From: Candidatus Zipacnadia bacterium
Lineage (GTDB): Bacteria > Armatimonadota > Zipacnadia > Zipacnadales > Zipacnadaceae
Direction of reading: 5' to 3'
NCBI GenBank assembly: GCA_029821195.1
Contig: JALGTU010000001.1
Span: 8,707 to 72,706 of the forward strand
DNA: 64,000 nt
Each line of letters starts with the position of its first letter. Position 1 is the first letter of the stretch. Shown in pieces: positions 7,530 to 64,000 of this stretch. The notes beneath the pieces are model-generated. The model saw nothing but the letters and a program-made list of their open reading frames with translations, did not search any database and was not told the DNA's origin. Made by a program: the position numbers and the translations under genes.

Positions 7530-7967
7530 ATGGCAGCTACACCACCAGAGAATGTCGAACTGCACATCCCCTGCGATCCCAGGTATATTGCTGTTGCCCG
7601 CTTAGTGGTAGCCGGGGTTGGGGCGCGGGTCGGACTGAATGTGGACGACATCGACGACCTCAAGGTCGCCGTCTCCGAAGCGTGCACCAACGTTATCGAG
7701 CACGCCCGCGGCGAGAGCACTACGGCAGGCGAACCCGCGGTCATCGTGTTGCGCTTCATCCCCCGCGAGAATGAGATGCAGGTGGAGGTAGAGGATTACG
7801 GCGCAGGATTTGATCTGGATCAGATCGAAGAACTCGAGCTCGACCGACCCTCCCTGGATGGCGGGCTGGGCATCTATCTGATCAAGCAGTTGGCTGACGA
7901 GGTGCAGATCCAGAGCGCCCCGGGCAGTGGCACGAAAGTGATTATGACCAAGCGCCTGGCGAGGTAG
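7530..7967 (+). CDS. Anti-sigma factor / serine protein kinase (RsbW/SpoIIAB-like, HATPase_c).
   Basis: N-box EACTNVIEHA and G-boxes DYGAGF / GGLGIYLI. GGAGG lies 8 nt upstream of ATG 7530. Its start overlaps the STAS gene stop. Confidence 0.8.
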   Translation: MAATPPENVELHIPCDPRYIAVARLVVAGVGARVGLNVDDIDDLKVAVSEACTNVIEHARGESTTAGEPAVIVLRFIPRENEMQVEVEDYGAGFDLDQIEELELDRPSLDGGLGIYLIKQLADEVQIQSAPGSGTKVIMTKRLAR

Positions 7968-7972
7968 CTTAT

Positions 7973-8731
7973 ATGGAATCTCGCTGGGATGATCTATCAA
8001 CCAATGAGTTGTTCGCCGAGTTGCGCGCTACGGGCGCCGCGGAACTGCGTGACTATCTAATACAGCGCCACGAGGGCCTGGTGCGCCACGTCGCCAAGGC
8101 CTACCAGGAGAGTGCGGAATCGTATGACGATATCCTGAGCGTGGGGCGCGAAGGCCTGATCAATGCGGTGGACCGCTTCGATCCGGAGCGGGGTACCAAA
8201 TTCGCCACCTTCGCCGTCCCCACCATCCGGGGCGAGATTCAGCGTTACTTCCGCGACCAGACCTGGGGCATCCACGTCCCCCGCCGCATCCAGGAGTTGA
8301 GCACCGCCGCTCGCCAGGTCCGGGAGGAGTTGGCCCAGCAGCAGGGCCGCCCCCCCTCCTACAACGAGATCGCCATGAAGATGGGGGTCTCCGAAGAAGA
8401 GCTGATCGAGGCCGTTGAAGTGGGCCGGCAGTACGACCTGGTCAGCCTGGACGCCAGCGCCGGCGTGGATTCGGATGAGGAGCTCAGCTATCTGGACCAG
8501 GCCGGCGATGAGGACGAAGCAATTGAGCAACTGGCCGACCGTGACGAGTTGGCCTCGGCGATGAGCCAGTTACCCAGCCGCCAGCGGGTTATCCTGGTCT
8601 TGCGCTTTTTCGCCGGGCTCTCGCAGCAGGAGGTCGCCCGGCGCCTGGGTATATCCCAGATGCATGTATCCCGCCTCCAGCATAAGGCCACCGACCGCCT
8701 AATGACTATTCTACAGGACAGTGCGAACTGA
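7973..8731 (+). CDS. SigB/SigF-type group-3 sigma-70 family sigma factor.
   Basis: Regions 2, 3 and 4 are recognisable (FATFAVPTIRGEI, helix-turn-helix LSQQEVARRLGISQMHVSRL). It follows the rsbV-like and rsbW-like genes. Confidence 0.8.
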   Translation: MESRWDDLSTNELFAELRATGAAELRDYLIQRHEGLVRHVAKAYQESAESYDDILSVGREGLINAVDRFDPERGTKFATFAVPTIRGEIQRYFRDQTWGIHVPRRIQELSTAARQVREELAQQQGRPPSYNEIAMKMGVSEEELIEAVEVGRQYDLVSLDASAGVDSDEELSYLDQAGDEDEAIEQLADRDELASAMSQLPSRQRVILVLRFFAGLSQQEVARRLGISQMHVSRLQHKATDRLMTILQDSAN

Positions 8732-27087: not shown

Positions 27088-29160
27088 CTACTGCGGCTGA
27101 TATCCCAGGCCGAGCAGGTAATTCCGCGTGGTTTTGACGATCTCTTCGTGCTCCTCGGGTACGTAACTGCCGCTGACCGCCCGGAACTTGCGGGTCTTCA
27201 GGTCAACCACAAAGACTGTGCCGTCTTCGCTCGGGGCGCCAGTGCCGCCCAGGGCCCGCTTTTGGGCATAGGTCTCGGCGGGTAGCGTCCACCCCGTGGC
27301 GCCCGCAGTTTCCGCCTCATCGCTGACAACCGCATGCTTGGAAATGCCGGCCGTCTTCTCGTAGACGAACCACTCCGTAGTAATCTCCAGCGTCGCCTTG
27401 GTCGGCGGCTTCATCGGCGTCATACCCATCATGCCCTCTTCACCCATCATCCCCCCGTAGCCGTAGCCAGGTGGCATCCCCATGCCGTATCCGCCCATCT
27501 GGGGCATCCCGCCGGGCATCCCCGGCTGCATCATGCCCTCCTCGCCCATCATCCCCATCGTGCCCATTCCGCCGCCTCCCCCCACCATCGCCGCAATAAG
27601 CGGCTGCACCTGGGTCACGTACAGGTCATCGGTCTTCTCGAAGGACTCTTTCTCGCCCGAGAGGCGCTCGACTTCGCCCTTGGCGGTGACTACTCTATTG
27701 ATCTTCTGGTCAATGGTATCTTCGAAGGCGACGAACCGGCCTGCCTCCAGCGCGAAGTAGGAGATGCGCTCAATGGAGACGTTACCTCTATACTCCATCA
27801 CCTGCGCGCCCATGCCCATCCCCATCTCGCCTTCCATACCCTCCATCCCGGGGGCCATCATGCCTTCCATGCCCATTCCCATACCCATTCCTGGAGGGCC
27901 CATACCGGGTTCGACCATGCCCCCGCCCTCAGCACCCATCATGCCGGCACCGCCCACCTGCTCCTTGCGCTGGGGCAGCTCGATCTCAATCTCTACACCC
28001 CGCGCACTGTACTTGCTGATGATGCGGGCACAGCGGAAGTTGCCCTTATACTCAAAGCTGTCGAGCCGGTGAATTGCGGAGTATGTCTCCGGCTCAGTGT
28101 TGGTCGGTCCCATAGTGACGGTCATGTCGCCCTGCCAACTGGAACCGACCCGCACCGGTCGCTCGGGAAGTTCGATGAAGGTCTGCCCCAGGGGGAAATC
28201 CGGCTGCTCATCGTGCATCTTCACGACTTCCGCCGAAGGCCGAACCTTGAAGCGATACTCATCTCCCGCCGCCGGCAGCACTTCCGCATAGGAATCAGGG
28301 ACGTTCTCCTCTTCCTTCTCCTCATCGCCGACGGTCCATATCTCCTTGGGCCACAGCCAGGAAACGATGTAGTAACCACGTAGGAACTCTCTATCCACAA
28401 CCGCGCGCCCGGTAGCCGTGGGGCTGAGAACTTCTTCCCCCCAGCCCCCGGAGGTTTCGACCACCACGTTTGAGGGCAGCCCTTCGATCTGGGAGCCGCC
28501 CGTGCCAACCATGCCCATACCCATCTCGGGCCCCATCATCCCGCCGTAACCATAGCCTGGCGGCATACCCATCATGCCCTCTCCGGGCATCATCCCGCCG
28601 TAACCATAACCTGGGGGCATACCCATCTCCATGTCCATGCCCATCTCCATCTTGGGCGGCTCGCGTAGCTCCTTGCCCGCCTCGCCGGGCACGTTAACCG
28701 TCATCTTGCCTTCGATTTCGTAGCGGAGAAGCTGCCCCTTCTGGTACCTGGTCTTAAGCTCGACCGCTCCGCCAATCTCGGAGGGGTCAATACTGTTGAC
28801 CACGGTAATCTGTACGCTGTCCTCGCCCTGGCGGCGGCCCGAACCGTCGAAGCCCATTGCCTTGATGGTGTATTGACCATCGGGATAGACCCGCTTGCCA
28901 TCGTGGTAGACCTGTGTGTTCCACTTGATGGAGAACGGCGCCATCGCCGCGGCCAGGTAGGCATCGCGGCTGGGCTGGACGCTGAAGGTGACCCAGCCGT
29001 CTTGCGACTGGGGTTTGGCCGCCTTGATTGCAACCACCCCATGTACTACCGCCCCGCTCGTCGGGGAGAGGATCTGCACCTGAGCTTCACCGGTAGCGGC
29101 GGTGCCCAACAGTCCGATTGCGAGAGCACAAACAATGACTATAGCTGACCGCAGGCTCAT
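27088..29160 (-). CDS. Secreted protein with an Ig-like N-domain and three Met/Gly-rich low-complexity modules.
   Basis: Signal peptide MSLRSAIVIVCALAIGLLGTAATGEA. Modules such as MGMDMEMGMPPGYGYGGMMPGEGMMGMPPGYGYGGMM occur at roughly residues 160-215, 395-455 and 520-580. Confidence 0.8.
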   Translation of the reverse strand: MSLRSAIVIVCALAIGLLGTAATGEAQVQILSPTSGAVVHGVVAIKAAKPQSQDGWVTFSVQPSRDAYLAAAMAPFSIKWNTQVYHDGKRVYPDGQYTIKAMGFDGSGRRQGEDSVQITVVNSIDPSEIGGAVELKTRYQKGQLLRYEIEGKMTVNVPGEAGKELREPPKMEMGMDMEMGMPPGYGYGGMMPGEGMMGMPPGYGYGGMMGPEMGMGMVGTGGSQIEGLPSNVVVETSGGWGEEVLSPTATGRAVVDREFLRGYYIVSWLWPKEIWTVGDEEKEEENVPDSYAEVLPAAGDEYRFKVRPSAEVVKMHDEQPDFPLGQTFIELPERPVRVGSSWQGDMTVTMGPTNTEPETYSAIHRLDSFEYKGNFRCARIISKYSARGVEIEIELPQRKEQVGGAGMMGAEGGGMVEPGMGPPGMGMGMGMEGMMAPGMEGMEGEMGMGMGAQVMEYRGNVSIERISYFALEAGRFVAFEDTIDQKINRVVTAKGEVERLSGEKESFEKTDDLYVTQVQPLIAAMVGGGGGMGTMGMMGEEGMMQPGMPGGMPQMGGYGMGMPPGYGYGGMMGEEGMMGMTPMKPPTKATLEITTEWFVYEKTAGISKHAVVSDEAETAGATGWTLPAETYAQKRALGGTGAPSEDGTVFVVDLKTRKFRAVSGSYVPEEHEEIVKTTRNYLLGLGYQPQ
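27420..27600 (-). repeat. Intragenic Met/Gly-repeat module 3 (CAT/CCC/GCC-rich on + strand).
   Basis: Encodes GMGTMGMMGEEGMMQPGMPGGMPQMGGYGMGMPPGYGYGGMMGEEGMMGM. Similar at DNA level to 28515..28665. Confidence 0.75.
27795..27960 (-). repeat. Intragenic Met/Gly-repeat module 2.
   Basis: Encodes GGAGMMGAEGGGMVEPGMGPPGMGMGMGMEGMMAPGMEGMEGEMGMGMG. Confidence 0.75.
28515..28665 (-). repeat. Intragenic Met/Gly-repeat module 1.
   Basis: Encodes EMGMDMEMGMPPGYGYGGMMPGEGMMGMPPGYGYGGMMGPEMGMGMVG. Confidence 0.75.
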
Positions 29161-31077: not shown

Positions 31078-31677
31078 CTAGTCCTGGGTCGGGTCCCAGG
31101 TAGTAGTGAAGTCATCAACCGCCGGGCTGTTTTCGGGCAGGCGCTTGGCATGACCGTCACAGAAGGCGAAGTTAGCACCTTCGTTGTGCCGGAAATCCAC
31201 GGTCGAACCGACGGTGTTCGGATCATTGTCCGGGTCGGGGTCATCCAGGCCCTCGATATCCGGGTACATATACCATGCCGCCGGGACCGTGGCATCCCCG
31301 AACATAATCACCTGCGACACGTAATCCACCTGCTGGAGATTATAGCCGGCAGCATCGGCAACACCTTGCGCCGACAGCCAGTAGTTCAGAGCATACCCCG
31401 GGCAGTACGAGTTCTCCAGGGGACAGATCAGGATATCGTAGTTCTTCACATACGGCTGAATTGTATCCTTCCAGGGCCCATCGCCGGGGAACATCGCCTC
31501 ATCGTAGTCGGAGGCATACATTATCGCCGCAGTACAGATCTGCTTGACATTCGATAGGCAAGCGGTGCCTACCGCCTTGCCCTTAGCCCGGGAGAAAACG
31601 GGGAAAAGTATCGAGGCCAGAATCGAGATAATCGCCATTACTACCAGAAGTTCGATCAGTGTGAAACCCTTGCGCAT
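31078..31677 (-). CDS. Prepilin-type N-terminal cleavage/methylation domain protein with an H-X9-DG (DUF1559) motif.
   Basis: [28 protein letters not shown] at the N-terminus, and RHNEGANFAFCDGH (H-x9-DG) near the C-terminus. Confidence 0.9.
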   Translation of the reverse strand: MRKGFTLIELLVVMAIISILASILFPVFSRAKGKAVGTACLSNVKQICTAAIMYASDYDEAMFPGDGPWKDTIQPYVKNYDILICPLENSYCPGYALNYWLSAQGVADAAGYNLQQVDYVSQVIMFGDATVPAAWYMYPDIEGLDDPDPDNDPNTVGSTVDFRHNEGANFAFCDGHAKRLPENSPAVDDFTTTWDPTQD

Positions 31678-31779: not shown

Positions 31780-33498
31780 TCATTGATACCATTGTGGGTC
31801 CAAGTCGGAAAAAATCCGGTCGCGCTCAGCCAATGCGCCAAGATATGCCCAGTCCTCATCACTTAACCACTCGCCGCGTGCGTACCGGCGGGCCAACTCC
31901 GTCACCCGCTTGGAATCAGTATGGTGGCACTGAACACGGGCCTGAGCGTAGTCGCGTGCTCCCCACGTTGTGATGAGAAACTCCCAGTCAGAGGCCTCCA
32001 GTATTAATAGTTCCCGTAATGCCTGCTGAATAAACCGCCGCATCGTATCATCGTGGCCGCTGCCGTGATTCTGCACCAGATCGCGCAGGTCCAACTCGGC
32101 GTCGTAGATGCGCTCCCAGCACCAGCGGGTGTCGTCGTTAAGCCAGACCCAGTGCCCACCACCCGCGCCCCAGGAACCCTCCGGGAGCGTCACGGCCGCC
32201 TGGGGCGGATTGTGCGCGAGATACTGGCTGCCGGTGACGACCTCAATCTCTGGGTCCTGGTGCATCCAGCGCAGAGCACTGACCAGGAAACGCGGACCCT
32301 CAAACCACCAGTGGCCGAACAACTCAGCATCAAACGGCGCGCACAGCACCGGCTGTTGCCCCGAAGCGAACTGATTACTCCGCAGTGTTTCCTTGACCGT
32401 CCACAAGAAGTTGCCGGCGTGGGCGCGCACCGCCTCGTCCGCCCACTCGGGCACATAATGTTCCTTGCCGCCCAGGTCCCGGTCGGCTCCGCTTACCCGC
32501 CAGTACCGCAAGTCGCCAGGCTCGTGCTTCTTGTGGAACTCCAGGTACGCCGCGTCACCCGGGTAGCCGTGCTCGGAACTCCACACCTTCACGCCAGTCT
32601 GCGGATCACGGATGAAGACGGCCACCGGCGGATGGTCTTCATAATAGTGGCCGACAAAGTAAGTGCAATAGGGCGATTTCTCGCCGGAATAAGGCTGCGG
32701 CTCGTGGATCTTGCGAATGCGCCCCCATTGCTTGCCCAAAGTCTGCTCAAAATCAATGTGCACCGGCTCGGGCGCGCCGCCGCCCAGCAGGTGAGTATCA
32801 ACCACGAAGTAATCAAAGCCGTTGCTGGCCAGGAACTCCTCGAGGCCCGGGCGAAAATAGGGCGGCTCCGCGCCGCTGACGAACGGCGGTGGGGCCCAAT
32901 CACAGCGGGGCCGGTAGGCGCCCTCGGGCAGCCAGAAGGCCCGGGGCCGGCGCTGGAAGTGCCGCTCGTATGTGGCCACGGCCTGTTGGATTTGCAGGGC
33001 GATGCTGGCATCCTCGCGCAATAGCGGCAGGTAGCCATGAGTGGCTGCGCAGGTCATCACCTCGATATGTCCCCGGTCCTGCCAGAGGCGGTACTGGCCG
33101 ACTATATCGCGCCCATAGCGGTCAACAAAGCTCTCACGCAGCGCTTCATAGCGCTCTCGCCAGCGATGGGCCAGGTAGGCCAGGTGGCCGTTGCCCCAAC
33201 TGTTGAACTCCCCCTCGTTTTCCCCCGCCCAGTAGATCTTGTCGTTGAGGTAGTTGGCGAACCATTCCTTGAAGCGCTCGTCGGCGAGCTGTTCGATGGT
33301 GACGGGGCTGAGACTGATGGTGATGTTAGCGGGGATGCCCTCCCAGGCCAGTTCCTCGATGACCCACAGCAGCGGGATGTAGGTATCAGCAGCCGCCTCG
33401 TAGAGCATCTGCGAGCCGTGCGGCCAGGTCCCATGCCCCAGGACGTAGGGAATGTGCCCGTGCAAAACCAGGACAAAACTACCCACAGGTTCGCTCAT
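31780..33498 (-). CDS. GH57-family 1,4-alpha-glucan branching enzyme-like protein (GH57 N-domain plus DUF1957).
   Basis: MSEPVGSFVLVLHGHIPYVLGHGTWPHG... is the GH57 catalytic N-terminus. True start ATG 33498, with GGGAGG 4 nt upstream. The ORF-track start at 33750 is an Arg/Pro-rich extension. Confidence 0.85.
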   Translation of the reverse strand: MSEPVGSFVLVLHGHIPYVLGHGTWPHGSQMLYEAAADTYIPLLWVIEELAWEGIPANITISLSPVTIEQLADERFKEWFANYLNDKIYWAGENEGEFNSWGNGHLAYLAHRWRERYEALRESFVDRYGRDIVGQYRLWQDRGHIEVMTCAATHGYLPLLREDASIALQIQQAVATYERHFQRRPRAFWLPEGAYRPRCDWAPPPFVSGAEPPYFRPGLEEFLASNGFDYFVVDTHLLGGGAPEPVHIDFEQTLGKQWGRIRKIHEPQPYSGEKSPYCTYFVGHYYEDHPPVAVFIRDPQTGVKVWSSEHGYPGDAAYLEFHKKHEPGDLRYWRVSGADRDLGGKEHYVPEWADEAVRAHAGNFLWTVKETLRSNQFASGQQPVLCAPFDAELFGHWWFEGPRFLVSALRWMHQDPEIEVVTGSQYLAHNPPQAAVTLPEGSWGAGGGHWVWLNDDTRWCWERIYDAELDLRDLVQNHGSGHDDTMRRFIQQALRELLILEASDWEFLITTWGARDYAQARVQCHHTDSKRVTELARRYARGEWLSDEDWAYLGALAERDRIFSDLDPQWYQ

Positions 33499-33515
33499 CC
33501 GACCTCCCACCGGTC

Positions 33516-33737
33516 TCAGCCGGCTAGCGTCTGGCGAATTCGCTCCACAATCTTCTCGACCGAAGGCAGATTCTCTTCTTCCAGCGGTGCAGCCATTGGC
33601 GGCGGGACATTGTGCGCCGCCACGATCTTTATCGGGGCGACCAGGTCTGCAAAGACCTGCTGCTGGACCTGGTAGGCAATGTGCTCGCCGAAACAGCCGC
33701 GCTCGGTCAGGACGCTGGTGTCGGGACAGCCTGGAAA
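33516..33737 (-). pseudogene. 3'-terminal fragment (~73 codons) of a paralogue of the E1 alpha/beta dehydrogenase gene at 35995..38271. No usable start codon.
   Basis: Minus-strand translation gives *FPGCPDTSVLTERGCFGEHIAYQVQQQVFADLVAPIKIVAAHNVPPPMAAPLEEENLPSVEKIVERIRQTLAG*. This is near-identical to the C-terminus of the intact E1 gene (...ERGCFGEHIAYQVQQQVFADLAAPIKIVAAHNVPPPMAAPLEEENLPSVEKIMGNIRQTVGR*). Confidence 0.8.
33571..33706. repeat. Direct repeat copy A (~136 bp, ~93% identical to 36050..36186).
   Basis: Direct comparison of the two segments. Both are in the same orientation and bracket the secretin gene. Confidence 0.85.
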
Positions 33738-35656
33738 TCAAGCAAGGCACCCAGGTCCTGCCCGGTGGGCAGAATCGTCGAATAGACCAGCAGGACGCTC
33801 TCGTGATGAACTATCAGTGGGCTGCGCCCGAAGCGAAACATCTCGCCCAGCACCGGCAACTGCCCCAGCACTGGCACGGAGGACTTAGCCCGCGGCTGGG
33901 TGGTGCGCAACATCATACTAGATAGGGAGAAAAGGTCCAGGGCGTTCACGTAGACGCTGGTACTAGCCGTGTGCTCGGCCACGCGGCTTAGCGGTGCCGT
34001 CGTAGGCTCCTCGACCCCTTCCACTGTCACTTCGGCATCCTTATGCGCGACCGTGACCGCAACCTGCAATTCTGCGGCCGCCCCCCCTGGCAAGATATGC
34101 GGGGTGAAAGTAAGCTCAGTTCCCTCCGTCATAGAACCCCAGACCCGGGGCTCGTCTGCAGTGCGCAGCGACTCGGCCAGCGTGACCAACGGCATGACGG
34201 GCAGCTCGCCCTGGGCCACCGCGACCGGCTGCTCCTCCTCGGGCGGGGCGTTCAGTTCGAAGTAGCTGCGGGCGCTGCCCGTGACCGTGGCCTGGGTGCC
34301 GCCCAGCACCACGATGCTGGTGGAGCTGGTGGAAGCCAACCCGGATTGCCCGCTGCTCCCGGCGATGGCGCGCAACCGGTCGAGTAGTGGGCGCAGGAAG
34401 ATGGCCTCCACGTCTGCGGCCAGCGCGCGTTCTGCGGCCTGCAAGACGACATCCACGTCGGCGGCACGCCGGCTCAGCCGGTCCGGGGCCAGCGCACGCC
34501 AGTCACGAGCTTGTGTCCGGGAATCCAGGAGGAAGTTGCCGATGGTTTGCTGGGTGAGCTTGAGGTACGCGGCATCATCGAATATGTGCAGCAAGGTCCC
34601 GGGCAGTAGGGGTGTGACGCTGGCCTCCTGGCTATCGGGGGGGCCCTCTTGTGATGCCATAATAGTATTGCTTAACAGCGTAGAAAGCTCAGTGGCTGGC
34701 ACGGTTGACTTGGTGTCTACCAGGCTGCGCCATACAGCCAACGCGGCCGGGTCCTGGCGCGACAGCCCGTCCAGCCAGCGGCCCAGCGACTGGCTCAGGT
34801 GCTGCTCGAGAGTCTGGCGCCAGCTCAGGCCTCCCGCCGGCGGCATCATGAGCAGCGTAGCCAGTGTCTCCGTGAGCGAAAGGGGGTGCGGACCCCGGGC
34901 GGAGGGCGTGATGAGAATGGTGCTCTGCCCCGGCAGCAGGTCGCCCAGGTCCACGACATTCATTTTGATTGAAAAGCACGGCTCAGTATCGCTGGCCTCG
35001 TCGTCCCGTGAGGTGCTCGCCTGCTGTTGGGCTTTCTCTGCTCTCTCCTGATTGTGCTGTTGGGAGGCCCGGGCGCAGGCTTCCAGTTGGCGCAGATAGC
35101 CGCGCATGAGATCGCCCACTGTCCGAACTGTCTCCCGCGCCTCCTGCGCTCGCCCGGCGACAACTTGCGCATCGCCACCGCTGATCTGAAAGGTCCACAG
35201 GTCGAGGCGGACCTGCGGCTGAGGGACGTCAATGGTGGCGATGACCCGCTTGAGGTCGTCCACCTGCGAACGCGGACCGGCTAGCACCACCAGCGGAGTC
35301 AGGCTTAAGCCCTCGCTGGCCGCTACGTTGACGTCCGGTGCCAGGGCTGCCTTTACCGGTTCCAGCAGCCTCTGCAGTGCCCGCGGTTCGCGCACATAGT
35401 GCAAGCGGACTGTCTCGCAGACCGGGGAATCATCAACCTCGGAGGAGACAGGTACCAGTATATCCGGGGTCTCACCGATAATGGTCACTGGCCTTGGCGG
35501 CATTGGCATTGCTTCCCCGCCAACTATGGCCCCAACACCTGGCTGCTCCGCAGCGGCCTCCTCCTGGGCAAGAGCTGGCATTACCACGGCCACCAGCAGG
35601 CCAATGCTCATACACAGCAATACAACACGGAAGTGAGTTAGTCTACTGCGCTTCAT
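33707..35656 (-). CDS. Secretin (GspD/PilQ family outer-membrane channel).
   Basis: Signal peptide. The C-terminal secretin signature is VPVLGQLPVLGEMFRFGRSPLIVHHESVLLVYSTIL, and the N-domain resembles Secretin_N. GAGGAGG RBS lies 7 nt upstream. Confidence 0.8.
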   Translation of the reverse strand: MKRSRLTHFRVVLLCMSIGLLVAVVMPALAQEEAAAEQPGVGAIVGGEAMPMPPRPVTIIGETPDILVPVSSEVDDSPVCETVRLHYVREPRALQRLLEPVKAALAPDVNVAASEGLSLTPLVVLAGPRSQVDDLKRVIATIDVPQPQVRLDLWTFQISGGDAQVVAGRAQEARETVRTVGDLMRGYLRQLEACARASQQHNQERAEKAQQQASTSRDDEASDTEPCFSIKMNVVDLGDLLPGQSTILITPSARGPHPLSLTETLATLLMMPPAGGLSWRQTLEQHLSQSLGRWLDGLSRQDPAALAVWRSLVDTKSTVPATELSTLLSNTIMASQEGPPDSQEASVTPLLPGTLLHIFDDAAYLKLTQQTIGNFLLDSRTQARDWRALAPDRLSRRAADVDVVLQAAERALAADVEAIFLRPLLDRLRAIAGSSGQSGLASTSSTSIVVLGGTQATVTGSARSYFELNAPPEEEQPVAVAQGELPVMPLVTLAESLRTADEPRVWGSMTEGTELTFTPHILPGGAAAELQVAVTVAHKDAEVTVEGVEEPTTAPLSRVAEHTASTSVYVNALDLFSLSSMMLRTTQPRAKSSVPVLGQLPVLGEMFRFGRSPLIVHHESVLLVYSTILPTGQDLGALLDFQAVPTPAS

Positions 35657-35682
35657 TCTCTCTCCTCCTCAAATGATATTGC

Positions 35683-35702
35683 TTGCGCTGCGCGAAGCGC
35701 AA
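35683..35702. promoter_or_regulatory. Perfect inverted repeat TTGCGCT-GCGCGA-AGCGCAA in the secretin 5' region. Candidate operator or 5'-UTR hairpin.
   Basis: Read directly. Lies 27 nt upstream of the secretin ATG. Confidence 0.35.
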
Positions 35703-35994
35703 CCTTGCCGTCTGCCTGGCGACCTTTGGTTGCAGCCTGACGAAGCCTTTGTCAGTTTAGCCGCCATTTCGCTTCGCCAACGCAATGCCCCTTCTCCCTA
35801 TTCTATGCTGTGCAACCCTTTTCTCTTGCCCTTGGAGCGCAACGTAAGGCTCCTGGAGCCCGTCGGTGAGCTCCTTGACTCACGGACCTACATCCGTCGC
35901 CACTTACCATAGTTAGGAGTTGCCACTGCGCTGCTCCACGATAAGCTGGTTGGAATCGTCATAGGTCCGCTGCCATGCAGCTTATGCGATATCC

Positions 35995-38271
35995 CTAACG
36001 GCCCACGGTCTGGCGGATATTGCCCATAATCTTTTCAACCGAGGGTAGGTTCTCTTCTTCCAGCGGCGCGGCCATTGGCGGCGGGACATTGTGCGCCGCC
36101 ACGATCTTTATCGGCGCGGCAAGGTCGGCAAAGACCTGCTGCTGGACCTGGTAGGCAATATGCTCGCCGAAACAGCCGCGCTCGGGAGCCTGCTGGACGA
36201 CAACCAAGTGCCCGGTCTTGCGCACCGATGCGGCGATGGTGTCCACGTCCAGGGGCACCAGCGTGCGCGGGTCAACCACCTCGACCGAGATGTCATCCTC
36301 AGCTAGCTTCTCAGCAGCCTCCATGGCCCGGTAGTAGAGCCAACTGTAAGCCACTACCGTGCAGTCGGTGCCTTCTCGGGCCACGCGAGCTACCCCTATC
36401 GGCACAGTATACTCCTCGTTGGGCACCTCCCCGCGCTCGGTCAGCGCGTGCTGGTGCTCGATATAAATCACCGGGTTATCGTCGCGGATGGCCGATTTGA
36501 TGAGGCCTTTGGCATCGTACGCTGTCGCCGGCGCTACGACCTTCAGGCCCGGGAACATCGTCACGACCGCCTCCAGGCTCTGCGAGTGCTGGCCGGCATA
36601 GCCGCGGCCGCCGCCAACCGAGGTGCGAATGACCAAGGGGATCTTGGCCTTACCGCCGAACATATAACGATTCTTGGCGGCCTGGTTGCCGACCTGGTCC
36701 ATCGCCATTAGAATGAAATCAATGTACATCAACTCGACGACGGGCCGCAGCCCGACCATCGCCGCCCCGACCCCCGTACCAACAATGGCCGCTTCAGAGA
36801 TAGCAGCATTGAAGATGCGCTCACGGCCGAATATGTCAATAATGCCCCGGGTAACCCCAAAAGCACCACCGTAATCAGCGACATCCTCGCCGTACAGGAT
36901 AACGCGCCGGTCGCGCAGCATCTCTTCGACCAGCCCCTCATTAACCGCATGCCGGTACAGAATCGTCCTCGCGCCCTTCCCACCGCGCTTCCGGACCTTC
37001 TTCAACAGCTTCTCTTCCGGCGTCGCCCATTGCGGATCCAACTTGTCGCTGGTCGTATCGGCGAACAGGCCATCGTAGATATCCCTGGGATCAGGATCGG
37101 TGGCATTGCCTGCGAAAATAGCTGCGTCGTGGATGCGCTGGGCCGCTGCGCTCTCCTGCGCCTTCAGTTCTTCCTGCGTGGCCACACCGTGCGCCAGAAG
37201 CTGTGCCCGGAACTGCCCGAGCGGGTCGCAATCATGCCACATCTGCTCCTCTTCTTTGCTGCGATAGCTCTCGCGGGTATCGGACAGCGAGTGGCCCATA
37301 TAACGATAAGTGTGGCATTCGAGCATCACCGGGCCCCGGCCACTGCGACATAGCTCAGCAGCTCGGCGCACCGCATCGTGCACCGCCAGCACATCCATGC
37401 CAGTTACGCCCTCAGCGTGCATGTTGACGTCATTGTAGCCCGCACCGCGCTGCGCCAGATACTTGACCCCGGTCACCTCACCCTGCTGCTGACCGGTCAT
37501 ACCATACTGATTGTTCTCGATAAGATAGATCACCGGCGTGCCCTTCTTAAACTGCGCCATCGCCGCGAAATTGTACGATTCGTGGGCAATACCGTTGTTG
37601 GCCGCGCCGTCGCCGACCATACACAGCACCAGCCGGTCGGTGCCCTGCTTCTGGCAGCCCATCGCCGCACCGGTTGCTATTGCGTAAGAGCCGCCGACAA
37701 TGGCGTTGGCGCCGAGGTGTCCGGCGTGGAAGTCAGCAATGTGCATTCCCCCACCACGACCTCGGCAGTAGCCTTCTTCCTTGCCGAAGAGCTCGGCCAT
37801 CGTACGGTTGAGATGCTCCTGGAGTGCCAAACTCCACAGCTCCTCGGCGCTGGCCCCGGCGACCTCTCGGCCAATGAACTCCGCCAGTTGCTCGGGCGGC
37901 TGCCCGCGTAGCCAGTAGATGCCCTTGGCGATCGAGTGACCGTGGCCGCGGTGCGTACTGGTGATGTAGTCGTCGGGCCGGATCGCTGACATCGCCCCGA
38001 CAGCAACCGCCTCCTGTCCCAGCGATAGATGTGTAGCTCCGATGAACTTGAAACCGGGCAGCGGCGCGAACTTGCCACCCTTTAGCTGCACGATCATCTG
38101 CTCAAACTCGCGGATGAGCAGCATACATTCATACAGACCCAACGCCTCTGCGGCGGTCATCCCCCGGGCTAGCTCGTCCCCCAGATCACCCTGGTAGGTA
38201 AACAGCGGCACCGGCGGGAACGTGATCTCCTGGGGTGTGAAGATAGGACGAACGTCAATGTCTTTAGGCAT
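35995..38271 (-). CDS. Fused alpha/beta E1 component of a 2-oxoacid (pyruvate/acetoin-type) dehydrogenase, TPP-dependent.
   Basis: The N-terminal half carries the E1-alpha TPP motif (GDGAANNG..N). The C-terminal half is E1-beta / transketolase-C-like. GGAGG RBS. Confidence 0.85.
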   Translation of the reverse strand: MPKDIDVRPIFTPQEITFPPVPLFTYQGDLGDELARGMTAAEALGLYECMLLIREFEQMIVQLKGGKFAPLPGFKFIGATHLSLGQEAVAVGAMSAIRPDDYITSTHRGHGHSIAKGIYWLRGQPPEQLAEFIGREVAGASAEELWSLALQEHLNRTMAELFGKEEGYCRGRGGGMHIADFHAGHLGANAIVGGSYAIATGAAMGCQKQGTDRLVLCMVGDGAANNGIAHESYNFAAMAQFKKGTPVIYLIENNQYGMTGQQQGEVTGVKYLAQRGAGYNDVNMHAEGVTGMDVLAVHDAVRRAAELCRSGRGPVMLECHTYRYMGHSLSDTRESYRSKEEEQMWHDCDPLGQFRAQLLAHGVATQEELKAQESAAAQRIHDAAIFAGNATDPDPRDIYDGLFADTTSDKLDPQWATPEEKLLKKVRKRGGKGARTILYRHAVNEGLVEEMLRDRRVILYGEDVADYGGAFGVTRGIIDIFGRERIFNAAISEAAIVGTGVGAAMVGLRPVVELMYIDFILMAMDQVGNQAAKNRYMFGGKAKIPLVIRTSVGGGRGYAGQHSQSLEAVVTMFPGLKVVAPATAYDAKGLIKSAIRDDNPVIYIEHQHALTERGEVPNEEYTVPIGVARVAREGTDCTVVAYSWLYYRAMEAAEKLAEDDISVEVVDPRTLVPLDVDTIAASVRKTGHLVVVQQAPERGCFGEHIAYQVQQQVFADLAAPIKIVAAHNVPPPMAAPLEEENLPSVEKIMGNIRQTVGR
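36050..36186. repeat. Direct repeat copy B (3' end of the intact E1 gene).
   Basis: See copy A. Confidence 0.85.
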
Positions 38272-63194: not shown

Positions 63195-64000
63195 CTACGG
63201 GCAGTATCCCCCGCCCGGCGGCGCGCCCAGCGCAATCTCTCGCAACTCTTTCGTGTTGGGCCCGAGGTCCCACCAGGTAGTATCTGGGTCGCAGTTCTGA
63301 AGACCTGAGCCTCGTTTGACCCAGTCGGCGTGCCCATCACACCAGGCTATGTTCATCCCATCGCTATGACGGAAAGAAAAAAAGCCATTTCCATTGCCGC
63401 GCGCGTCGTCTAGTCCGGTACAATTCATCTTATTGTCCCAGCTTCGGTGCTGACTAGTCACGCCCTTGTAGTATTGAGTTTCGCACAGTAGCACTGTTTG
63501 GGCAGGGGCTTCTACCCAGGTCTCGTTGGCTACCCAGTACTTGTAGGCCGAGCCCCCCTCAGGCCACTTGCAGCGCGCGGCGAAGGTCAGACCGCCATAG
63601 GGCTCCACCTTCGTAGGGTTCTCAGGGTGCGTAGGCCACGCCAGAAGCCTATCCAGGTAGTTCGAAAAGTAGTTCATATTGAACGGGGCGTAGCGGTAAC
63701 ACCATTTGTCAGTGGGATCGTAACAGTGGCTCTCTGAGCACTGAAACGCCGCCAAGTCGCTGATGTACTCGGGCCATAGCTTGTCGGTGTATCGGTGATA
63801 GGGATAGTATCCCTTGTAGTCGCTGAGGTAGATCATCATGGCCGTGGCGGTGTTCTTAATGTTACTGAGGCACTGGGTCTGGTAGGCCTTGGCCCGCGCC
63901 CGGGCGAACACCGGAAACAGAATCGCCGCCAGGATGGCGATGATCGCTATCACCACCAGCAACTCAATGAGAGTAAAACCACGCCTCTTAACATTCGTCA
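63195..64000 (-). CDS. Second prepilin-type H-X9-DG (DUF1559) protein. Its 5' end runs past the window end.
   Basis: rc of the window end reads ...[27 protein letters not shown]. The C-terminus has [14 protein letters not shown] (H-x9-DG). Confidence 0.85.

Follow-up and report, generated by a model that had tools for sequence, protein, structure and literature searches.

Within a 64-kb window, the whole stretch of bacterial DNA that we analysed, a gene with a secretin domain is enclosed by two direct copies of the 3' end of a neighbouring gene, which encodes a fused alpha/beta 2-oxoacid dehydrogenase (E1). Copy B is the tail of the intact E1 gene, and copy A is a start-less stump between the secretin gene and a gene for a glycoside hydrolase of family 57 (GH57). 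E1, secretin, and GH57 are all on the minus strand. Copy A is most readily interpreted as the non-functional remnant of an E1 3' end. We consider it, with a probability of roughly 60%, a recombination scar in a hypervariable slot between E1 and GH57, generated by one illegitimate join and then reshaped by homologous allele swapping. Orthologue comparison placed the window in the phylum Armatimonadota, class Candidatus Zipacnadia (described in PMC10290634). The contigs used for comparison (L numbers below) are all short-read metagenome assemblies.

The E1 stump and its junction with the secretin gene

A repeat search aligned positions 33529-33706 with 36008-36185 in the same orientation over 178 nt without gaps, at 89% identity (20 of the 178 positions differ) and a spacing of 2479. 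This was the only long dispersed repeat within the window, and the spacer and the secretin gene occurred once each. Stretches identical between the copies included blocks of 44, 32, and 25 nt. Alignment and translation identified copy A as the last 63 codons of E1 plus a stop codon, in the E1 frame, with the stop at the position homologous to the E1 stop; the fragment corresponds to the end of the Pfam domain Transketolase_C (positions 72-124 of 124). An earlier note on this DNA had described a 136-nt direct repeat of 93% identity derived from the E1 3' end. The repeat is real but longer (178 nt gapless, ~190 nt in all): the 136-nt core holds as its best-conserved part but not as its full extent, because the homology covers the entire E1 tail from codon 696/697 to the stop. 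The note was also correct in assigning copy A to a start-less open frame of 73 codons, and the sequence bears out its placement of the stump between the secretin stop and the ribosome-binding site (RBS) of GH57.

Copy A starts at 33706, the base directly after the secretin stop codon TGA (33707-33709), and homology to E1 is lost abruptly there, as the sequence upstream of 33706 is secretin coding sequence. The same junction, CCTGA-CC(G/A)AGCGCGGCTG (the hyphen marks the join), was found in L082 (SDBT01018117.1), a single contig from a project other than that of the window. The secretin genes of the window and L082 differ by 13% in DNA and are 82% identical in amino acids (aa), and L082 is ~13-18% diverged in DNA overall. 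An identical junction despite this divergence points to one origin.

We also considered whether the arrangement could be a repeat-induced misjoin or a strain chimera produced during assembly. Short-read metagenome assembly underlies every contig, and co-occurring strains have conserved E1-tail k-mers in common. Furthermore, positions 1-138 of L101 repeat, in inverted orientation, an internal stretch of E1 (residues 258-303, opposite strand), an end piece typical of assemblers and likely a hairpin artefact, so some comparison contigs are imperfect. However, the repeat recurs in further contigs. The complete layout is present in L001 (JGI 3300033148, 30.7 kb), which matched the window over 17,264 nt with 21 single-nucleotide polymorphisms (SNPs) and no gaps (99.88% identity) and in which both copies are unchanged, and the junction is present in the third, divergent contig from another study, L082. 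Moreover, copies with 20 differences in 178 nt would not collapse or expand, and no sequence common to both sides of the junction exists that could mislead a de Bruijn graph. An assembly artefact is therefore extremely unlikely.

Alleles of the E1-GH57 slot and the secretin module

A TPR gene, E1, and GH57 are adjacent in all close relatives, and the gap between E1 and GH57 is a hypervariable slot between two conserved neighbours. In relatives that lack the secretin here, E1 is followed by GH57, which the earlier note had suggested checking. The gap is then either non-coding, with 102 nt in L101, 287 nt in L004, and 885 nt in L083 and L091, or occupied by one unrelated gene, namely gene X for a 288-aa TPR protein in L003 and gene Y for a ~400-aa protein without family in L002. 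L093 and L094 (probably also L005 and L096) contain the secretin gene and an unrelated 207-nt spacer without a stump, and the window and L001 contain the secretin gene and the E1 stump. Relatives thus include alleles without the secretin and alleles without the stump, and E1 and GH57 are adjacent potential homology anchors. The 207-nt spacer between secretin and GH57 in L093 and L094 is similar in length to stump plus spacer and was considered as a decayed stump, but was rejected because the likeness is limited to the GH57 RBS.

In L082 the order is E1, X, a GH57 5' stump, secretin, an E1 3' stump, Y, and GH57. Its E1 stump and downstream DNA are colinear with the E1 tail and gene Y of L002 (80% over 824 nt), and its X and GH57 fragment are colinear with X and the start of GH57 in L003. 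The GH57 5' stump (~2098-2209) lies between gene X and the secretin leader and consists of ~75 nt of upstream DNA and the first ~38 nt of the coding sequence, a mirror image of the E1 3' stump. At its junction with the secretin module (secretin position -190) there is a 3-nt microhomology (TGC), which is typical of illegitimate joins.

The left junction of the window (E1 stop +25 to secretin -165) is common to L005, L093, and L096, with the addition of a ~160-nt insert that only the window has, and its right junction is common to L082. This combination is direct evidence of mosaicism. The insert (35810-35965), found in the window and L001 only, splits the junction between E1 stop +25 and the leader that is seen in L005, L093, and L096, and is flanked by similar octamers (GCAGCGGA and GCAAGAGA). 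A sensitive blastn search against all loci gave no homologue of it; the matches were the window itself and L001.

The sequence immediately upstream of the secretin gene is conserved in the window, L082, L005, and L092-L096 despite differing flanking genes (window 35657-35815 on the minus strand, L082 2238-2396, L092 ~7842-8000, L095 ~1591-1749, L096 ~200-360). This strong conservation across at least four unrelated genomic contexts indicates that the leader belongs to the secretin gene module, as a promoter or 5' untranslated region. The leader had no Rfam match, a fold z-score of -1.17, and no convincing covariation. At the other end, the native secretin TGA is at the same position in all homologues. 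The module also occurs far from E1. In the metagenome-assembled genome GCA_030603495.1, where the E1-GH57 slot contains the TPR gene (L003, JAUVXR010000012.1), a secretin orthologue (80% aa) lies on another contig (L092, JAUVXR010000006.1) between genes for FTHFS and an S9-type peptidase. The secretin is next to a C14 peptidase gene in L095, 72 nt after the gene for signal peptidase I (LepB) in L097, and in yet another context in L098 and L099. Three different sequences start directly after the secretin TGA, and left boundaries were found at -165, -190, and -49. From these comparisons, at least five distinct junctions around the secretin gene appear to be illegitimate, and the gene appears to be a self-contained one-gene module (leader plus coding sequence) that wanders between loci.

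Two observations concern the secretin gene itself. A conserved segment of ~65 nt lies directly downstream of the secretin stop in three contexts (L092 9969-10029, L095 3649-3709, L096 2269-2333), and in the window, L082, and L093/L094 the stop is followed at once by other sequences; the varying sequences from this point onward suggest that the stop codon is a recurrent recombination boundary. In addition, of the 21 SNPs that separate the window from L001, 8 are within the secretin gene (window 33707-35656, L001 12616-14565), a density of 0.41% vs ~0.085% in the remaining 15.3 kb. Six of them are synonymous and two non-synonymous (R293C, P339T). The excess hints at a recent recombination import or at higher diversity in the secretin.

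Divergence and origin of the stump

Over core codons 3-54, copies A and B differ by 11 synonymous changes and one non-synonymous change. In 200,000 neutral simulations, the probability of one or fewer non-synonymous changes was 5e-6. Divergence that is nearly all synonymous means that both sequences were coding while they diverged. The window stump matches the resident E1 tail at 87.8% and the L003 tail at 85.0% identity, and the resident and L003 tails are 88.9% identical to each other. The L082 stump is 90.0% identical to its own E1 tail and 92.2% identical to the tails of L002 and L004. Between the two stumps identity falls to 77.8%, lower than for any other pair in the clade. By sequence, the window stump clusters with the E1 alleles of the window and L003, and the L082 stump with those of L002 and L004. 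The L082 stump has one unique substitution, which adjoins the junction. In the window stump the last ten codons are diverged, and its oddest residue, Arg55, is present in a functional E1 (P0029, ...KIAARIRQTVGR). Both stumps look like recently functional E1 alleles of different classes placed on the same old junction.

The earlier note had taken the high core identity as a sign of gene conversion or a recent event. This does not hold, as the distance between stump and resident tail equals that between orthologues (87.8% vs 88.9%); gene conversion between the stump and the resident tail was likewise rejected because copies within a genome are no more alike than orthologues between genomes. The high identity instead appears to reflect coding constraint before displacement, the core probably being the most constrained part of E1.

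The note's suggestion that the secretin came to lie between E1 and GH57 through a rearrangement, which displaced an E1 3' end, fits these data. Our favoured account is as follows. In this clade, several independent illegitimate joins would have brought the secretin next to different neighbours. In one of them, the base that follows the secretin stop would have become linked to an internal position of E1 codon 696, leaving an E1 tail downstream of the secretin that ran into whatever normally follows E1. We infer that the join probably took place during import of DNA from a related strain, through homology to E1 or GH57 at one end and an illegitimate join at the other, that is, by homology-facilitated illegitimate recombination (HFIR). 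As intact E1 and secretin genes were both preserved, the join would have been tolerated. Later, ordinary allelic replacement from strains without the secretin may have used the stump, E1, secretin, and GH57 as homology arms, and imports of an E1 tail with its downstream DNA and GH57 would have overwritten the stump and the DNA that follows it, which is Y in L082 and the 17-nt spacer in the window. Such replacement would explain why the stump of each lineage resembles a recently functional E1 allele.

Several points weigh against this account. The junction between the secretin stop and E1 has 0 nt of microhomology (compared with the secretin 3' flank of L096 and L092 and the E1 consensus), whereas HFIR joins usually have 3-10 nt. 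The source allele, in which 17 nt would separate the E1 stop from GH57, is not among the loci sampled, where the shortest spacer is 102 nt; the deletion allele predicted for the present locus has the same structure and was absent among 101 loci. The stumps are specific to their allele class beginning with the first informative site, which lies 12 nt off the junction, so re-import must have converted the stump up to the edge of homology, which is possible. In L082, the colinearity of stump and gene Y could also result from a strain-chimeric assembly path along k-mers conserved in the E1 tail. Sliding-window identity to eight relatives (all 70-88%) gave no signal of a recombination breakpoint near codon 697 of the window E1, and none of these relatives is close enough to show a breakpoint inside that gene. 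Finally, the history is reticulate.

Among other explanations, a homology-armed cassette of the Campbell type would account for much of the pattern. The segment comprising tail, spacer, and secretin would loop out as a circle through RecA-mediated recombination between the repeats and re-integrate by a single crossover into another E1 tail, each integration recreating the junction and displacing the recipient tail as a stump. An identical junction in two diverged lineages would be expected, as would stumps that each resemble a different E1 allele class and run into lineage-specific downstream DNA. The identical blocks of 44, 32, and 25 nt could support such recombination, and in L082 a single deletion between the E1 tails would yield an L002-type locus and one between the GH57 5' copies an L003-type locus. 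However, the part of the stump near the junction should then be donor-like, and the stumps differ from the first informative site and have no derived states in common. The window and L082 show no marked similarity in the E1 tails upstream of the secretin (82%), that of L082 is contiguous with gene X as in the secretin-less L003, the secretin occurs in the same slot without a stump (L093/L094), and no circular-junction or deletion allele was found. We consider this scheme unlikely. It is also improbable that the secretin is an integrase-less homing cassette that repeatedly enters the same E1 3' position, either by the RecA/Campbell route or with an unlinked site-specific recombinase, even though such a cassette with a replacement tail would explain the common junction together with lineage-specific stumps contiguous with lineage-specific downstream genes.

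A decayed site-specific integrative element that entered at an att core in E1 codon 696/697 with a replacement tail, making copy A attR and copy B attL, would similarly produce the same junction nucleotide in two lineages, a wholly recipient-like stump contiguous with native downstream DNA, and an upstream copy that restores the intact gene. We regard this as very unlikely. Only 338 bp and the secretin gene lie between the copies, with no integrase, excisionase, or other gene, and the insert of L082 has just a TPR gene in addition; at least three left and at least three right secretin boundaries exist in other contexts; a scan of viral contigs found no secretin relatives; and the element of L082 would have to include gene X and the GH57 fragment. 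For the junction seen in two lineages, common descent is an equally good explanation. Transposon-type target duplication, one of two origins proposed in the earlier note, conflicts with the absence of terminal inverted repeats and of a transposase, with the length of the repeat (178-190 nt), and with the 11% divergence of its copies; the search for integrases, transposases, and inverted repeats found none between the copies, where the only gene is the secretin. The other proposed origin was deletion of a second E1 paralogue. Loss of all but the last 190 nt of such a paralogue, or of a tandem E1-to-GH57 duplicate, with the secretin at the join, would suit the layout of L082, where a GH57 5' fragment is followed by an E1 3' fragment with full copies outside, as in a tandem join. 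The slot of L082, however, contains unrelated genes (the TPR protein X and Y). No relative has two E1 genes here, and no locus has two E1 bodies or any E1 fragment besides the tail; no remnant of an E1 body lies upstream of either stump. The distance between stump and resident tail, equal to that between species, is not that of a recent duplicate within a genome, and a separate insertion of the secretin exactly at the join would be required. A duplication remnant therefore has little probability.

A function for copy A, whether through a -1 frameshift fusion of secretin and stump, through a 26-aa open reading frame (ORF) that JGI called in the stump, or as a cis element for GH57 expression, is exceedingly improbable. 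The frame, which is intact in both lineages, is -1 relative to that of the secretin and contains no stop in the 10 codons preceding the junction; the upstream DNA that belongs to GH57 itself amounts to just 17 nt, so the gene would rely on upstream transcription and is presumably co-transcribed with the secretin. Nevertheless, the stump had no start codon giving an ORF of at least 50 aa, no promoter, no terminator, no Rfam match at E<=1, and no stable fold (z=-0.78), and a protein search with the 62-aa stump alone gave one uninformative match. A frameshift fusion is not supported either: reading of the last 30 nt of the secretin gene revealed no canonical slippery heptamer (X_XXY_YYZ), the secretin TGA is constant in every context, and most homologues lack a stump, including the secretins of L093-L097. 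The intact frame is explained by a recent origin from functional alleles.

The locus shares features with several known systems. Variable loci between conserved flanks are shuffled by homologous recombination in the pneumococcal cps region (dexB-aliA) and in O-antigen clusters (galF-gnd). As in those loci, conserved flanks serve as recombination arms, close relatives differ in content, alleles are mosaic, and gene remnants lie inside; unlike them, the E1-GH57 slot is tiny (0-3 genes) and its contents (TPR protein, unknown protein, secretin) are functionally unrelated. Phages, integrative and conjugative elements, and genomic islands can enter the 3' end of a gene with a replacement 3' end and so create attL/attR direct repeats. 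The present locus likewise combines an intact gene with a substitute tail, cargo, and a displaced original tail as a direct repeat, but lacks an integrase, an identical att core at the ends of the repeats, and other element genes, and the cargo has variable boundaries elsewhere. In transformable bacteria, HFIR (De Vries & Wackernagel 2002, Prudhomme et al. 2002, and Meier & Wackernagel 2003, as cited in PMC5361080; also PMC3240628) integrates foreign or allelic DNA through homology on one side and an illegitimate join on the other. The junction is abrupt, the genes alongside stay intact, and the recipient gene leaves short duplications or remnants, as seems to be the case here; the differences are that our events were deduced from comparative genomics alone and that the key junction lacks microhomology. 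Displaced 3' ends, or orphan modules, also occur downstream of Rhs, contact-dependent inhibition (CDI), and type VI secretion system (T6SS) effector genes, for which a model has been presented in PMC5361080 (Kirchberger et al. 2017). There too a 3' fragment without a start codon, which retains a conserved stretch, lies downstream of an intact version of its gene, and the incoming module is proposed to anchor in the conserved part and shift the old 3' end downstream. In contrast to those effectors, E1 is a housekeeping dehydrogenase dependent on thiamine pyrophosphate and not a polymorphic toxin, its tail is conserved and not variable, no immunity-like ORF is present, and the cargo is an unrelated secretin in place of a new tail.

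The feature is an ordinary kind of genome-evolution trace and reveals no new mechanism. It does provide a clean multi-allele example, from an uncultured group of Armatimonadota, of a short gap between conserved genes that has turned into a gene-shuffling slot, in which rare illegitimate joins would leave stumps that then offer additional homology for later exchange of alleles. Annotations should label the 73-codon frame and the 26-aa JGI ORF as an E1 pseudogene fragment rather than as a gene. Presence or absence of the secretin at the E1-GH57 locus may serve as a strain marker. From the 44-nt block of identity, precise loss of the secretin would be expected now and then, and RecA-mediated loss of spacer and secretin is plausible.

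Features of the locus and neighbouring sequence

The coordinates of the locus are compiled in the table below. The E1 protein contains the Pfam domains E1_dh, Transket_pyr, and Transketolase_C and resembles PDH E1 beta/alpha in NCBIfam; its orthologues in L002-L005 are 83-85% identical in aa. Window positions 36597-35966 were colinear with L005 2126-2757 by blastn, and a flank resembling the E1 3' flank of the window was also found in L096, L002, L083, and the L082 stump. The spacer between E1 and secretin measures 338 bp. Matches of the secretin to the NCBIfam models GspD, SctC, and PilQ were far under the cut-offs. Homology to the GH57 upstream regions of relatives starts at the RBS (window 33507), and GH57 orthologues downstream of E1 are 82-88% identical in aa in L002-L004, L082, L083, L093, and L094 and 80% identical in L101.

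Table. Features of the E1-secretin-GH57 locus in the window
Feature	Position	Strand	Basis
Fused E1 alpha/beta 2-oxoacid dehydrogenase gene, intact, 758 aa	35995..38271	-	ORF, Pfam
Copy B, functional E1 3' tail, from inside codon 696 to stop TAG (35995-35997)	35995..36185	-	Repeat family D1, alignment, codon table
E1 3' flank, ~25-30 nt, conserved, common to other alleles of the locus	35966..35994	-	blastn
Window-specific insert in the E1-secretin spacer, ~160 nt	35810..35965	-	Multiple alignment of secretin upstream regions
Secretin leader/promoter region, ~155-165 nt	35657..35809 (to ~35815)	-	Conserved upstream of secretin in every context
Secretin-domain gene, 649 aa, native TGA end	33707..35656	-	Pfam PF00263, E=8.6e-9
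Copy A, E1 3' stump lacking a start codon, beginning within codon 696 and ending at its own stop TGA (33516-33518)	33516..33706	-	Repeat search, alignment, Pfam
Spacer, 17 nt, with RBS GGGAGG (33503-33508), from stump stop to GH57 ATG (33498)	33499..33515	-	Sequence
GH57 glycoside hydrolase / branching-enzyme-like gene, 572 aa, conserved gene bounding the slot on its right	31780..33498	-	Pfam Glyco_hydro_57 and BE_C, NCBIfam

Exact-protein look-ups of the window secretin and of P0001 returned no record, and that of GH57 returned the L001 contig as the sole result. Elsewhere in the window, three copies of a 68-nt repeat (68-82% identical) occur at 27416-27483 and 28505-28626, in what appears to be repetitive coding DNA rich in Gly, Met, and Pro; they have no relation to the E1 stump. 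Genes with prepilin-type N-terminal methylation signals (DUF1559-like) were found at 31078-31677 and 63267-63986. The former lies directly downstream of GH57 and was not found near GH57 in L002-L004 or L082. In the window strain only, a secretin gene and a pseudopilin-like gene thus flank a gene for a glycogen-branching-type enzyme.

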